Below, in pieces: positions 6,102-29,899 of a stretch of DNA of 39,007 nucleotides. Position 1 is the first letter of the stretch, and each line of letters opens with the position of its first letter. This DNA is from Vicugna vicugna. Taxonomy: Eukaryota. The stretch covers positions 185,782 to 224,788 of the forward strand of contig MU057584.1 in the NCBI GenBank assembly GCA_013265495.1, given 5' to 3'. Under the pieces are notes generated by a model that was not told the DNA's origin, did not search any database, and saw nothing but the letters and a program-made list of their open reading frames with translations. The translations under genes and the position numbers were made by a program.

Positions 6102-8671
<2,570 letters not shown>

Positions 8672-11552: not shown

Positions 11553-11710
11553 TTTTTTTTTAACGAACTTTATTTCTTTATTTATTTGGTGAGGGGAGAT
11601 AATTAGGTTAGTTTATTTATTTACTTATTTTAATGGCAGGACTGGGGATTGAACCCAGGACCCTGTGCATGCTAAGCACGCGCTCTACCCCTGAGCTATT
11701 ATACCCTCCC
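11553..11710 (-). mobile_element. tRNA-derived camelid-type SINE (vic-1-like)
   Basis: Reverse complement of gggagggtat..agctcag..gtagagcgcgtgcttagcatgcacagggtcctgggttcaatccccagt plus A-rich tail. Confidence 0.85.
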
Positions 11711-12199: not shown

Positions 12200-12808
12200 T
12201 CTTTATAGCAGCCCGGCCTTCCAGAGCAGATTCCTGCCAAATCCAGCCACCACTTGAGTGTCTAAAAGGTATATCGAGACAAAAAAAGCCTCATTAGAAT
12301 TAAGTCTTTGAGAGGGGAGGGTATAGCTCAGTGGTAGAGTGCATGCTCAGCATGCCCGAAACCCCAGGTTCAATCCCCAGTACCTCCATTAAAAAAAAAA
12401 AAAAAAAAAAGAATTGATTCTTTCCTCCCAAACTGATCTCTCCTTACCCCATGGGAGTAAACAGTACCATCTACCTTAAAGTTATCCTGGATTCTTCCCT
12501 TTTCCTTTCTCACACTATTCATAAAAAAAAAAGCCTGCCTATTATGATCCCCAAATACCGTTCAAACCTACCCACTTCGCCCCGTCTCTGCTTCCATCTC
12601 TCTAGTCTGACTCATCGTTATCCTTTGCTTAATGATGCAGATACTTTTCCTCAGCTCAGCCCGTCCCTTAAAGTACTTGAAAGCCATTGTCTTGTCAGCC
12701 CCGTGAGGGCCGGGATGTTGTCTGGTTTGTTCTTTGATATCCCATCAGTGCTCAGAAGGTTTGGTCTACAGTACGTGTTCAATAAACATTTGCTGAACGA
12801 ATAATGAA
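12200..12808 (+). mobile_element. LINE-2 3' region, interrupted by a SINE
   Basis: Ends with the L2 terminus ccgtgagggccgggat...tcaataaacatttgctgaacgaataatgaa. Confidence 0.7.
12310..12409 (+). mobile_element. tRNA-derived camelid-type SINE (short form)
   Basis: ggggagggtatagctcagtggtagagtgcatgctcagcatg...ggttcaatccccagtacctcca + poly(A); TSD agaattaagtcttt (12296-12309) / agaattgattcttt (12410-12423). Confidence 0.9.
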
Positions 12809-13419: not shown

Positions 13420-14300
13420 ATTTTGAATTGTAAAGAAAAAAAAATCACTGCTATGATTGGAAAATAAAACAAAACAAAAAAACCCCAAAACCTCAAGAGA
13501 TGAGCTAAACAGCAGAATGGACACCAGTGAAGAATAAGCCAGTGAACTGGAAAACCGATCAGGCTCCTGCAACGTGGTAGAAAACGGCGAAGAAGAGAAT
13601 AAAAGTTAAAGAATAGGGAAGATGGACCCAGAAGTTAAACCACTTATCACAGGAGTTCCAGGAGGGCCAAATGAATAAAACACTAGTAACAACAGACATC
13701 CAGGCAGAAAATGCACTAATCAGCGCTAGAAGACCACAGAACAAGCACAATGAAGAACAAGGGTCACTGATTTTCAAAGATCCTTGAAAGTGACACCCAG
13801 CCAAGCCTTTGTCAAGTATAGGCTTGACAGACCTTTCTGGGAAAAATGACCAGAATACACGTGGCTCACTGGAAGATGAATGGAGAAGGCAGGATACAAA
13901 GACCAGCACCGCATTTCACGCCTAGAGAAAATGAAGCAACTTACGCAAAGTTCCGCAAGTGAATGTAAGAATTTTAAGCCCAATTTGCCATTGGAGCATA
14001 AAGGCAACAAAGACTTCTTTTTTTTTTAATATGCACTGCACCTTCTGTTCTTTTATTTGGGGGGGGGCAGCGGGGTAATTACTTTTAATGGCGGTACTTG
14101 GGATTGAACCCAGGACCTTGGGCAAACTAAGCACGCGCTCTCCCACTGAGCAATACCCTCCCCACACAACCGACACTTCTTAAGCAAGGAAGAACTCAGA
14201 GGATACAGCATCCATGCCATGAATCTTCTTTGGAAAAAAATCAAGCAGTGGATGAAATTAAGCCAATCCAAAGATAAACCACCACAGAGCCAGGCCTGAA
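13420..14300 (+). mobile_element. Highly decayed L1 ORF1/HAL1-like remnant
   Basis: gatgagctaaacagcagaatggacaccagtgaagaa..agtgaactggaaaac (ELNSRMDTSEE..SELEN) and acaggagttccagga (GVP motif). Confidence 0.5.
14018..14163 (-). mobile_element. tRNA-derived camelid-type SINE
   Basis: gggattgaacccaggacc...ctaagcacgcgctctcccactgagcaataccctcccc preceded by T-rich tail. Confidence 0.85.
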
Positions 14301-17090: not shown

Positions 17091-17244
17091 GGTGGGGAGG
17101 GGATACCTCAGTGATAGGATGCATCCTTAGCAAGAGCAAGGTCCTGGGTTCAATTTCCAGTGCCTCCATTAAAAAAAAAAAAAAAAAGAAAAAAAACCTA
17201 ACTACCCCACCCCCCCCTCCCCGCCTCAAAAAAGAAAAAAAAAA
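17091..17244 (+). mobile_element. tRNA-derived camelid-type SINE
   Basis: ggtcctgggttcaatttccagtgcctcca B-box region; TSD atctcctggcc at 17080-17090 and 17245-17255. Confidence 0.88.
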
Positions 17245-22000: not shown

Positions 22001-22535
22001 CATTAGCGATTTCTGTGGAAGGTAGCCTAACAAAAGACCACCAACTTAGTGGCTTAAAACAACTACTTCTTTATGCTCAGGGGTTCTCTGGGTCAGGAAT
22101 TTAGAAAGGACACAACAGGGATGGCTTTTCTCTGTTCTGTGATGTCCGGAGCCTCAGCTGGGAAGACCCACAGGCTGGTGGCAACTTGACAGCTGGGGAG
22201 TGGAATCACAAGACTGGAAGTTGATGGCAATGGTCGGCTGGGACCTCAGCTGGGGCTGTCAACTCCAATACCTACACACGGCCTTTCCATGTGGTTTCCT
22301 GGGCTGCTTCACAGCAGCGTAGCTGTGCTCCAAGTGTGAGCACCGCAGGAGAACAAGGGAAAGCTGCATCACTTTCTATGACTTAGCATCAAAAGTCACA
22401 TATAGTGTCGCTGTCATCGTCACAAGCCTGCTCATGCTCAAGGACAAAGAAGATCAATCCCCTTCCCCCAACCTCTCAATGGAAGGAAAGTTAAAGTCAC
22501 ATTTTAAGAAAAGCATGTAATTTGAGAGGTGCTAT
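22001..22535 (-). mobile_element. MaLR LTR (MLT1-type, probably MLT1F-like)
   Basis: acttagtggcttaaaacaac...tgggtcaggaattt...gcctcagctgggaagac...ggctgggacctcagctggggctgtc...aagtcaca. Confidence 0.75.
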
Positions 22536-22619
22536 GTTAGTTCCTGGGGCACAGGGACCTGGTCTGGTATTGCCATCTAAGACCTGACAGGGCACCTGGT
22601 TTGGGCCAGGAGCCACTCT

Positions 22620-22890
22620 GAGAACAGGACAATTTCTTCTACACCATTATCCCATAGGGGACCTAAGTGCAAACAGCCAGTAGTATGGGTTTGACAAAAT
22701 TAAAGAAATCCAACAAAAAATAAATAAAGACCCCTCTGAATTTTTGGAAAGGATTTATCAGGTTTATAGCAGATCCCAAGGTCCCTGAAAATGCTAGAAT
22801 GCTAAATATGAGAAAACTGCAAAAATTAGATGATGTATTTGGAATAAACCCTTCACAATTGGTAGGTGTTGCTTTTAACATAACAGGGAA
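22620..22890 (+). pseudogene. gag: ERV gag capsid remnant
   Basis: KIKEIQQKINKDPSEFLERIYQVY (major-homology-region-like), then ADPKVPENARMLNM/RKLQKLDDVFGINPSQLVGVAF..NRE. Confidence 0.8.
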
Positions 22891-23805
22891 ACACTCATTC
22901 TAGAAACTCATCACTTTACCCAAGATTGTCCTTATATCCATCACCACCTCACTCAGCTCATGTTTTGGCTTCCTTGATCCTACACTGTCCCTCTTTGTTT
23001 TAGAGAAGTTTACCAGCTGGATATGTGGGACTGACTCATGTTTGGCAGTATCCTATGCCAGTTCTTCACCACCACTGGGCCTACTCAGTGGTAAAATGCC
23101 ACATCTCAAGAAATGGTTTCTGAGTTTTGGAAACTCCCTCACATCAGAGTGCTGCATGTTCTTAGAGCCTGTCCCAGTCTTGCACATTAAGAGGTGATGG
23201 CCCTCCAGAAGGTGAGACACCCAGGCGGCTTTCAAGAGAACAGATTTTTGTATTGATATCAGCAGCTTCCATTAAGTTAGGTTCCACGATGTGCTATTCT
23301 AGTCTTGGACCCTTTTTTCCCAAGGAGCCTGAAAAGAAAGGAACCAGCAGTACAGTTATTGGTATGATCGCTGGATGTTGTGCTTTGTCGGACTTGGGGG
23401 CACCTTTGGTTTTTGGAAAAAATCATGTACATATTGGAGCACAATTTGTTCGTAATAAGAAAGTTTGTCTCAGGAGGAATTACAGTTCTCTTTGGTGTAT
23501 GGGAACAAGGCTTAAAAGAACCAGTGTTTATTGCTATGCGTTCTCTAATGAGAATAGCTGGAGCAGTTAAGTTTTGCTGCAGCAATGACTGCATCTTCTA
23601 TCCTTACAAAGACATGTCCAAATGATGTGGCGACAGTATTGGGAAGTCTTGACACTTTTTCTGGACTGGGACTAATGCTAGGGCTTCCTTTTGGTGACTT
23701 CTTGTACCAATCCTTTGCCTATGTAGTGCCTTTTATTTTTCTGGGATACATAGTTCTACCATCAACATGTGCATTTTACATAATTATGAGTCTGATCCAG
23801 GAAAA
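22884..23805 (+). pseudogene. SLC18B1: Intronless, circularly permuted SLC18B1 (MFS transporter) retrocopy; candidate circRNA-derived pseudogene
   Basis: 22884-23193: KHSF*KLITLPK..SLSSCFGFLDPTLSLFVLEKF..GLLSGKMPHLKKWFLSFGN..PVPVLHIK (~aa 224-330); 23194-23805: GDGP..GETPRRLSREQIFVLISAAS..LGPFFPKE..VATVLGSLDTFSGLGL..NYESDPG (~aa 15-225); stops and frameshifts present. Confidence 0.9.
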
Positions 23806-23861
23806 TAATTAAAAAGGTGGGAGCCTCTCATATGGTAAAAAGAGAGGAATACTCTGATAAA

Positions 23862-23954
23862 TGAAGAGGCTCAGGGGCTCCCTTGGACTTGAGGCCCCCA
23901 ATTCCAGTTTCCCCACAGGAGCCCCGGGTAACTTTGACAGTGGGGGGGGGCCAA
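23862..23954 (+). pseudogene. pro: ERV gag stop and protease N-terminus
   Basis: TGA (23862-23864) followed in frame by RGSGAPLDLRPPIPVSPQEPRVTLTVGGGQ; breaks off just before the expected FLVDTGA active site. Confidence 0.8.
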
Positions 23955-25215
23955 TGGTATGAGAATCCAAAAAAGGCTGCCTCTTTGGTATTTCAACTGG
24001 TATTGAGTAGTACTATTAACTCTTTGGGAAAAAATAGCCAAAATAAAGCTTTGTCAAATTTATTAGTACTGTCTCTGGTCCTTGAAACACTTGAATAATT
24101 GTGATGCTATTTAAGGAAAATAAAGTTAAATTTCAGGTCTTGCCATTAAGAACAAAGTAGATAGGAGACTTGGCTTTACCTGGGTGTGTACTTGAATATT
24201 CTGCACCCGAGGCGTCTGACCTCTGTCACTGTGGCAAACTCAGGAGCAGCTGCAGCGAGTGGTTACTCCGCATGCACCGCTTAGTTTAGTTTCATGTTTG
24301 CATATGGATGGTTTTTAAAAGTCCTTTTACATATTTAGTAACTATAATGCGTCACAAGTTAATTTAACTGTAAGTTTAGTTTAAATCAAATATGCAAAGT
24401 TTACTTGAGTTTTGAAAGCAAATTTTGACTGTTTACAGAATTGTTTAAATTACAGTTTCTCAGACACGTGAGCTTTCCTTTTGGGCCTTTTGCAGATGCA
24501 TGTTAAGGGCTTAGCGTTAGGATCTGCATATGTGGGGCACTGAAAAGACAAAGGACTTACAAATAAACTTTCGCTTATATTTTATTCCAAGACTGGCACT
24601 GCTGTCAATGGAAAGTATTTTTAACTAATCTGTTATTGAGAAATTAATCATATTTTTGCATTTCAGCCAAAATAAGGACCATAGCTAATATTCTGTAAGA
24701 TACAGTTAATCCGTAAACCTGAAATTCATGTTCCATATGATCTGAACAGTATTCTCCAACTTAAAATAAAAATGCAGTATTGATTCAGAAAAGTCTGTAT
24801 TTTTCTAACAACTTCACTTTATATTATTTTGTTGGGTTGCATAAAACAGGAATTATATTTGTTTTAAAAGCTTAAGAAAATTATTAGTTGAGTTTATTTT
24901 ATTTGTACATCATTGCACATGAGTCCATGCCACTTTTTTAAAAAGGTGGACACTATTTTAAAGTGATCTTTAATATGTTTTTTATATAAACAAACTTGAA
25001 ATAGTTTACTTGGTGGTCTTTGCTTATCAAGTCCCATAAGTCTTGTATTTGTTTCTCGTAAGTGGAACCCTGGACCATAACTTCATGTTAACTCTTTGCT
25101 TTGTCTTTTGGGTGGCCTAACATACATTAACATGAAGGATGAACATTTTAAAACTTTTTTTCAAGAAATTATAATAATGATTTACTTTATTAATAAAAAA
25201 GGAATCTTTTGTTGT
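23955..25215 (+). other. AT-rich non-viral insert resembling a cellular mRNA 3'UTR
   Basis: No pol-like translation; T/A-rich; AATAAA at 25192-25197 near its right end; replaces the rest of PR, RT and RNaseH. Source not recognised. Confidence 0.5.
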
Positions 25216-25269
25216 GCTTTCATGAGCACTTACACAGGTTACATGTGCTATAGAAACACTGGACACAGT

Positions 25270-26028
25270 CCAAAGTGGTTAAAGCCCTCCTTAATGAAAT
25301 TGTCCCCCGAATTGGACTGCCTAGTACTCTTCAAAGTGATAACAGGCCTGCTTTTGTCTCTAGCATAACCCGACATGTGTCTAAAATATTGCAAATTAAC
25401 TGGAAACGACATTCATCCCAGAGACCACAATCAACAGGAAAAACCAAGAAAATAAATCATACGTTAAAAAAGAGTATTGCTAAAATATGTTGAGACTAAT
25501 TTAACTTGGGATAAAGGCCTTGCCAGTTGCCCTGCTACAGATCAGAGTGGCTCCTAGAAGCAGGCTTAAATTAAGCCCCTTTAAAATATCATATGGTAGG
25601 CCATTTCAGGCGTCCCCCAGGCAGGAGAATCTACAAATGCTCTTAAAGTCCTAGCAATTGCCAATTATGTTAAAACTTTGGGCACTCTACTAACCTCTGT
25701 TCATGAGTTTGCCTCCAACAGGTCTGCTTATCCAACTGAAGTAGCCTTACATCCCTTCCGACTTAGAGACTGAATCTTGTTTAAAATCTGGAGGGAACAA
25801 GGGCCTGAGCTTCAGCTGACTGTAAAGTGGACAGGACCACATGTGGTATTACTTACCTCGCACTCGTCTGTCAAGTTAGCTGGGGTAAAGCCATGGATTA
25901 ATCACATGTAGATTAAAGCAGCACCACCATCATTGGAATCAGAAAACAACCCGACTCCTGAGAGGCCTGGGGAACAGTGGTTTTGTGAACCCTTAGAAGA
26001 CTAAAGGTTATGCTTTAAAAAAAGATAA
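25270..26028 (+). pseudogene. pol: ERV integrase remnant
   Basis: VVKALLNEIVPRIGLPSTLQSDNRPAFVS..WKRHSSQRPQSTGK..NHTLK..LSPF..YGRPF..KWTGPHVVLL..VKPWINH..CEPLED. Confidence 0.9.
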
Positions 26029-26412: not shown

Positions 26413-26902
26413 TGTAATAGGAAAGAGCAAACCTGACTCCATATTAGATCTGCTCTTTTGGCTTTAGCCCTATACCCCGTTTTCTAGACTTAGTCTTGCT
26501 AGCTCTGTACCTTTTGTAAAAGAATGTTGCCTACAGCCTGAAATATACAGGAGAGCCTATTCTCAAGGGGTATTAACACTTACGCATTCATATAAAGATA
26601 ACAAGTGCAGAATAGAAAATAACATTTGTTTTGTTGGAGGCTTATAGGGACCCATGTGGACACCTGCAAGAACAAAGAACTGCACCAAGAAGTTTGCAAA
26701 AACCAACCACACCCTCTCCCACTTTTAGTATAAAAGGAGCCTGAATTCTGACTTGGGGAAGATAGATCTCCAGGAGATGAGTCTGTCATCTCCCCTGTCT
26801 GCCGGCTTTCTGAATAAAGTCACTATTCCTTGTCCCAACACCTCATCTCCCAATTTATTGGCCTGTTGTGCAGCGAGCAGAATGAGTCTGGACTCAGTAA
26901 CA
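26413..26902 (+). mobile_element. ERV1 3' LTR (490 bp)
   Basis: TGTAA...TAACA termini; degenerate polypurine tract acagaggtgaat upstream; TATAAAA 26729-26735; AATAAA 26813-26818; ERV1 pre-LTR motif cagcaggaagtagccagagcgg at ~26339. Confidence 0.85.

Positions 26903-28132: not shown

Positions 28133-29899
<1,767 letters not shown>

Follow-up and report, generated by a model that had tools for sequence, protein, structure and literature searches.

A single turn of a circularly permuted SLC18B1 exon set inside a gammaretrovirus-like endogenous retrovirus, a likely product of reverse transcriptase template switching onto a circular RNA

The window analysed here, a 39,007-nucleotide stretch of Vicugna vicugna DNA, contains at positions 22884-23801 an intron-less, circularly permuted copy of eight exons of SLC18B1. 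The insert is one revolution of a circle, within the uncertainty left by microhomology at its ends. Judged from homology, its host is a degraded gammaretrovirus-like (class I) endogenous retrovirus (ERV) on the + strand. Template switching by a retroviral reverse transcriptase (RT) onto a circular RNA (circRNA) is the best reading of this chimera and, in our judgement, a likely one.

One turn of a circularised exon set

A blastn comparison with the parent locus, which lies elsewhere in the same genome (G000:C9280), matched eight exon-sized blocks in permuted order. Named a-b-c-d-e-f-g-h as in the parent gene, the exons follow one another in the window as f, g, h / a, b, c, d, e, f', where the slash marks the back-splice joint. 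On the parent side, the borders of all eight blocks are AG/GT. The parent exons a-h measure 140, 96, 74, 148, 157, 137, 102, and 92 nt, respectively, adding up to 946 nt, and exon a of the circle is probably exon 2 of SLC18B1. The identity of the gene was taken from PDB chain 9d7u_A ('MFS-type transporter SLC18B1'): window 22904-23194 corresponds to residues 436-535 (E 1.1e-27), 23166-23567 to residues 231-308 (E 5.7e-29), and 23558-23809 to residues 345-414 (E 7e-23). The order of these residue ranges along the window means that the protein order is permuted too. Pfam returned MFS_1 alone for the insert, below cut-off. The features of the insert are as follows.

22884..23008, + strand: SLC18B1 exon f, nt 10 to end (blastn vs parent)
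23009..23101, + strand: SLC18B1 exon g (blastn vs parent, joints)
23102..23193, + strand: SLC18B1 exon h, last of the circle (blastn vs parent, joints)
23193..23194, + strand: back-splice joint between exons h and a (exact at parent donor and acceptor)
23194..23327, + strand: SLC18B1 exon a, first of the circle (blastn vs parent)
23328-23423, + strand: SLC18B1 exon b (blastn vs parent, joints)
23424-23495, + strand: SLC18B1 exon c (blastn vs parent, joints)
23496-23641, + strand: SLC18B1 exon d (blastn vs parent, joints)
23642-23788, + strand: SLC18B1 exon e (blastn vs parent, joints)
23789..23801, + strand: SLC18B1 exon f, nt 1-13 (AGTCTGATCCAGG), completing the revolution (parent and joint alignments)

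The back-splice joint is exact: ...ATTAAGAG ends at 23193 and GTGATGG... begins at 23194 (AAGAG/GTGATGG), precisely at the GT donor and AG acceptor of the parent, and the same joint is present in all 18 copies that cover it. The seven forward joints, too, are exact wherever a genomic copy covers them. Two of the marks by which circRNA-derived pseudogenes are recognised (Dong et al. 2016) are seen here, as the non-colinear joint is a back-splice of splice sites and the copy is built from circle exons only, with no introns and no sequence beyond a-h.

On the left, the insert begins at nt 10 of exon f; on the right, exon e is followed by nt 1-13 (or up to nt 17) of exon f. With both ends inside one and the same 7-nt stretch of the circle (exon f nt 10-16), the insert amounts to one revolution. 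In our reading, the length templated by the circle comes to 946 nt, with a margin set by the microhomology (about -7 to +3), and the homologous stretch in the better-kept copies measures 939-956 nt, against 947 nt expected. By our own arithmetic, two points placed independently on a circle of 946 nt would be no more than 7 nt apart in ~1.5% of cases (p ~0.015). A preliminary description of this DNA had proposed a permuted, monomer-length insert opened mid-exon, which is borne out by ends that lie in exon f and by eight exons of 946 nt. The two 8-mers it singled out, cagggaaa (22884-22891) and caggaaaa (23798-23805), are present and do represent the same point of SLC18B1, exon f nt 10-16. The comparison it had called for, of insert length with summed exon length, gives agreement (939-956 nt in the better-kept copies, 946 nt for the circle). 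Entry and exit points far apart in SLC18B1, which it had named as contrary evidence, were looked for and are absent, both points lying within 7 nt.

The host element and the viral joints

The retroviral part of the window consists of remnants on both sides of the insert.

22532..22883, + strand: gag capsid (p30) C-terminal remnant with an abrupt start (homology to L044:8860-9413, Gag_p30 hits)
23802..23864, + strand: gag tail 3' of the lost nucleocapsid knuckle, with stop TGA at 23862-23864 (insert-free relatives)
23865..23946, + strand: protease N-terminal remnant, 82 bp (translation; P0001 homology)
23975..25200, + strand: second foreign segment, in place of the remaining protease, RT, RNase H, and early integrase (match to L049)
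25254..25908, + strand: integrase core and C-terminal remnants (Pfam rve E 2.6e-4, MLVIN_C E 4.4e-4)
about 26413..26900, + strand: 3' LTR (homology to the LTR pairs of the C6707 copy and the insert-free C10123 element)

A Pfam search of 42 open reading frames from the window flanks gave no gag or protease hit and returned rve and MLVIN_C only, both below the gathering score. Since the flanks are too decayed for Pfam, the identity of gag rests on a homologous insert-free relative. The flanks match such a relative at C10123, which scores 34.8 bits for Gag_p30 against a cut-off of 27.4 and also carries zf-CCHC, RVT_1, RNase_H, Integrase_H2C2, rve, and MLVIN_C between LTRs that are 92% alike. This insert-free relative displays the arrangement of a gammaretrovirus-like ERV, LTR-gag(p30, CCHC)-pro-pol with an MLV-type integrase C-terminus. 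In the protein record P0001, the part homologous to the window protease matches the XMRV protease 3nr6 (E 1.5e-4). Retroviral sequence had been described as resuming ~55 bp to the right of the insert, and the gag stop TGA indeed lies 56 bp on, followed by protease-like sequence; the insert-free relatives L019, L020, and L022 match from window position 23799 on.

All nine other copies compared match the window only from 22532 or later, yet extend leftward among themselves and continue into gag and the 5' LTR. By this comparison, the window copy is a 5'-truncated descendant, and its truncation accounts for the failure to find an LTR pair within the window. Outside the element, the minus strand of the window has at 28133-29899 a long open frame coding for C2H2 zinc fingers in tandem (84-bp repeats with TGEKPY linkers), as is typical of KRAB-type zinc-finger gene clusters, and a further array, in a more advanced state of decay, occupies 6132-7814. 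SINE copies derived from tRNA, with A-tails and in both orientations, are present at 11628-11699, 12314-12413, 14083-14154, and 17094-17193.

The second foreign segment (23975-25200) is ~1.2 kb long and confined to one ERV subgroup, that of the window. It matches locus L049 (G000:C9623:1401196-1402430) at 84% identity over 1255 nt; the locus has no ERV flanks, and the match stops just after AATAAA. This would be consistent with a further capture, that of the 3' end of a polyadenylated host transcript. When window 23900-25300 was compared by tblastx with the pol of the insert-free relative, similarity was confined to the first 48 nt.

Of ten loci taken as insert-free candidates, eight retain both flanks and seven allowed the distance between the viral breakpoints to be measured. 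Computed from match coordinates, the breakpoints are 179-193 bp apart in six of these seven relatives; in the remaining one, L018, which has a deletion, they are 114 bp apart. A stretch coding for the CCHC knuckle lies between the two viral sites in all eight relatives with both flanks. This spacing and this stretch indicate that ~185 bp of viral sequence, including the nucleocapsid zinc knuckle, were replaced, a loss that leaves a defective genome. The preliminary description placed the insert within gag, and its picture of a point insertion gives way to one of replacement. The locus C6043 was considered as a close insert-free copy and rejected, being merely truncated at window position 22845.

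Our own reading of the frames shows the SLC18B1 frame continuous with the gag tail across the right joint. On the left, the upstream gag frame fits neither SLC18B1 phase, and 946 is no multiple of 3; the SLC18B1 frame is broken at the back-splice and out of frame with upstream gag. With the knuckle lost and the gag frames in disagreement across the insert, the chimera was defective from birth and, as its reading frames indicate, could not have made Gag-Pro-Pol.

The microhomologies at the two joints are short and unequal.

22884..22890, + strand: left-joint microhomology CAGGGAA, of virus or circle (exon f nt 10-16) (parent and insert-free relatives)
23799-23801, + strand: right-joint microhomology AGG (exon f nt 11-13) (parent and joint alignments)

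At the left joint (viral site 1), L009, taken as representative of the insert-bearing copies, reads ..AACAACAGGGAAACACTC.., the parent reads ..GATCCAGGGAAACACTC.. (GATCCAGGGAAACAC around CAGGGAA), and insert-free relatives read ..CAACAGGGAAC.. (L018), ..CAACAACAGGGGAC.. (L016), and ..CAACAACAAGGAAC.. (L020). CAGGGAA is preceded by a viral base and followed by an A from the circle, so it is common to virus and circle. Site 1 is an exact CAGGGAA in only one of the eight insert-free relatives (L018), and five others differ by one mismatch (CAGGGGA in L016, CAAGGAA in L019 and L020, CTGGGAA in L021, CAGCGAA in L022). At the right joint (viral site 2), the insert-bearing copy L006 reads ..GATCCAGGAAAACAAT.., the insert-free relative L022 ..AAGAAGGAAAATAAT.., and the parent ..GATCCAGGGAAACACT..; here AGG is a perfect match of 3 nt, and 9/11 positions agree if the comparison is extended. 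In exon f coordinates, the left crossover thus falls in nt 10-16 and the right one in nt 11-13. Short virus-host identity is found at both crossovers, with the viral side read from diverged relatives, 65-85% identical to the flanks, and not from the true progenitor. By our own arithmetic, a random joint would show microhomology of at least 7 nt with p ~4e-4 and of at least 3 nt with p ~0.05. The 8-nt microhomology proposed earlier stands at the left joint, at 7 nt, and fails at the right, where 3 nt are perfect, so the two joints are asymmetric.

Dispersed copies and other data sets

Searching the genome with the insert returned the window, 23 pieces at 20 other loci, and the eight parental exons; these counts are lower bounds. 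The 23 pieces are 73-85% identical to the window, and most span the whole query. The joints are common to at least 21 dispersed copies: the left gag flank directly adjoins the insert at 18 of the 20 other loci, and among 19 aligned copies the left joint is kept in 18 (L005 has a deletion across it) and the right joint in 17 (altered in L005, broken by unrelated sequence in L031). The insert is embedded in an ERV in every copy with examined flanks. Homology between elements ends at the LTR ends, which makes them separate integrations and not segmental duplicates. In the two LTR-flanked elements that were aligned, C6707 and C10123, the LTR ends are truncated or interrupted. The capture happened once and was followed by dispersal. 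The window had been taken for the site of the event; it is instead one descendant among at least 21 copies with the same joints.

A maximum-likelihood tree of 19 copies, with the spliced parent as outgroup and without L027 and L046, which are short fragments, has the shape of a star. Its terminal branches have a median of 0.094, its inner branches measure 0.003-0.044, and the window falls in a well-supported subgroup of eight copies (98/98). We count the star-like shape with its short inner branches in favour of rapid spread. Copies differ from the parent by 12.5-24.4% and from one another by 19.2% on average (171 pairs), and the two LTRs that flank one insert-bearing copy, the sole such pair found, are 80% alike. 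The divergence of the copies and this LTR pair mark the capture as old, and an assumed mammalian neutral rate suggests tens of millions of years.

Homology that ends with the LTRs rules out spread by segmental duplication, with one possible exception. L003 and L008 lie on the same contig (G000:C2710), ~487 kb apart, and are separated by a tree path of 0.068, far closer than any other pair, which suggests a later local duplication or a late retrotransposition. An assembly artefact is excluded by the 21 loci together with other public data sets.

P0001, which comes from an unrelated public assembly and was the one match in a large protein database, carries the same chimera: SLC18B1 exon e/f is followed by the same right joint, and then come the gag tail and the protease. 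It is a 206-aa open frame that reads through the gag-stop position.

Among the contigs of four runs, some from RNA libraries span the left joint and the back-splice (e.g., X18 records 10 and 11, X20 record 22); they are mostly less than 90% like the window, and in such contigs a circRNA and an ERV copy are indistinguishable. They may represent DNA carry-over or other copies and are a sign of neither transcription nor a circRNA. Run X16 contains a 60-nt contig with a depth of ~1840 that starts exactly at the first base of exon a (window 23194-23247) and has small insertions relative to the window. At least half of the sampled words of window 23100-23300 were recovered in 17 runs with six coded organism labels (A to F), and an orthologous copy seems common to several related species. 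In the titles and abstract openings covered by our literature search, circSLC18B1 was named nowhere.

Template switching, its rivals, and related systems

In the sequence of events that we propose, a gammaretrovirus-like virus or ERV would have packaged a 946-nt circular RNA made of eight back-spliced SLC18B1 exons. During minus-strand synthesis, once the protease and the gag tail had been copied, RT would have left the viral RNA at the purine-rich site 2 (..AAGGAAAACAAT..) and re-annealed on the circle at AGGGAAACACT, with the 3 terminal nt perfectly paired and 9/11 matching overall. RT would then have copied the circle once round and, back at its entry point, switched to the viral RNA through the 7-nt match CAGGGAA at site 1, ~185 nt further upstream. 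Helper elements would have carried the resulting defective chimera to 21 or more genomic sites. The progenitor expected under copy-choice would carry CAGGGAA at site 1 and ..AAGGAAAAC.. at site 2, ~185 nt apart.

The geometry of the joints can be stated closely. The first circle-templated base is exon f nt 10 (or lies in nt 11-13) and the last circle-only base is nt 17; the 7 nt between entry and this last base would be the landing sequence on the virus. Exit would coincide with entry if RT could not pass its own start, either because RNase H had removed the copied RNA or because the enzyme collided with its own DNA tail. We infer that the template was circular and inside the particle when copied, that the switches took place on the minus strand, and that exit was forced by one of these two obstacles. 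RNase H destruction of the copied template fits the geometry, and DNA-tail collision predicts the same pattern.

A spliced host insert in viral sense within viral coding sequence is what copy-choice would leave, and copying of a co-packaged RNA requires the sense orientation. The sense orientation without poly(A) noted in the preliminary description holds, insert and ERV both being on the + strand. Its larger proposal, an RT template switch onto a circRNA, keeps the support of a one-turn sense insert with microhomology at both joints and loses its point-insertion geometry and symmetric 8 nt. The sense orientation, the absence of introns, poly(A), and duplication, the microhomology, and the viral deletion all fit an account with two switches.

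The insert might instead stem from a linear RNA or DNA with repeated exons, picked up by ordinary transduction of a stretch that happened to equal one period; the source could be an mRNA with exon repetition or trans-splicing, a gene duplicated in tandem, or an older circRNA retrocopy of multimeric length that was read through. A repeat with a 946-nt period would offer the same microhomology site in each period, and the joints could then coincide with no circle involved. However, each exon is single at the parent locus, the other matches of the insert lie in ERV context or are fragments, no match is longer than one turn, and the two viral sites differ, so that nothing would force both joints onto one site of the circle; exon-repetition transcripts are, moreover, generally far rarer than back-spliced circles. 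We regard a linear source as very unlikely. End-joining of a free circle cDNA into a broken provirus or unintegrated viral DNA, with ~185 bp resected, draws on the fact that short microhomologies with local deletion are also typical of microhomology-mediated end joining. It calls for a separate full-length linear cDNA, opened at exactly one point and with 3-7 nt of terminal redundancy, leaves the sense orientation to a 50:50 chance, and takes more steps than copy-choice, a known ability of retroviral RT; among the explanations weighed, it is the least probable.

A LINE-1 enzyme, too, could have reverse-transcribed the circRNA and placed the cDNA in an integrated provirus, whose later multiplication carried the passenger along. 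In general, insertions by LINE-1 may remove target DNA and have microhomology at their 5' joint. LINE-1 as the usual route to processed pseudogenes is taken up by Dong et al. 2016 (PMC4897178). Against this stand the joints themselves, at which none of the three marks of LINE-1 processed pseudogenes (3' poly(A), a 7-20 bp target-site duplication, and a TT/AAAA nick) is seen. No poly(A), target-site duplication, or TT/AAAA site was found at the insert joints in the window or in the alignments of copies and relatives, and the combination of the three, which the preliminary description had asked to be looked for, is absent. Viral sequence is not duplicated, and the closest TTAAAA is found away from the joint, 8-10 nt inside sequence that matches insert-free relatives. 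LINE-1 also leaves the length of one exact turn unexplained, and we consider its involvement highly improbable.

A related system is oncogene capture, in which a host mRNA is transduced by non-homologous RT template switching. Classical transduction and the SLC18B1 insert share spliced host sequence in sense orientation, replaced viral genes, microhomology at joints, and a defective product spread by helpers. The SLC18B1 insert differs in that a back-spliced circle was captured, giving a permuted copy of one period with coincident ends, and in that nothing points to a read-through 5' joint or, with the frame broken at the back-splice, to passenger selection. LINE-1 processed pseudogenes likewise are intron-less copies of host exons, but the SLC18B1 insert departs from them in lacking poly(A) and target-site duplication, in its non-colinear exons, and in being embedded in an ERV.

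The closest parallel is in mouse. Dong et al. (2016, Cell Res 26:747, PMC4897178) defined circRNA-derived pseudogenes and showed that circRNAs can return to the genome; the accessible text reports 33 high-confidence and 9 low-confidence circRFWD2 copies, with few 3' adenosines and an enrichment of LTR sequence in their flanks, for which the legend of Fig. 1D names MMERVK10C-int. It states that the mechanism by which these pseudogenes arose 'remains mysterious'. The link between circRNA pseudogenes and ERVs is accordingly already known from circRFWD2/MMERVK10C-int in that paper. The mouse copies and the SLC18B1 insert are alike in being multi-copy, intron-less, and non-colinear with a back-splice joint. 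They differ in gene, host, and ERV, which is a class II ERVK in mouse and gamma-like class I here. The accessible text of the circRFWD2 paper (PMC4897178) describes circle sequence of varying length and includes no analysis of breakpoints or microhomology, whereas the joints of the SLC18B1 insert are mapped to the nucleotide, its length is one turn, and the viral deletion is defined. Among the titles and abstract openings surveyed, none described retroviral circRNA capture with breakpoint analysis, and none tied SLC18B1 to an ERV. The SLC18B1 chimera adds another host, another ERV class, and a breakpoint-level signature.

Copy-choice onto packaged circRNAs might be a general route to circRNA-pseudogene families, including circRFWD2/MMERVK10C, a proposition that we put forward tentatively and with more doubt than confidence. 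If true, its signature would be one revolution with coincident breakpoints, as RT must leave the circle where it entered. The combination of one turn, coincident crossovers, microhomology to two separate viral sites, and loss of the knuckle is predicted by retroviral copy-choice and not by LINE-1. The question of circRNA retrotransposition is thereby turned into a testable rule, namely one-turn, coincident-end inserts inside LTR elements. The SLC18B1 chimera suggests that retroviruses can package circRNAs, and copy-choice would be a route by which circular RNAs could re-enter genomes.
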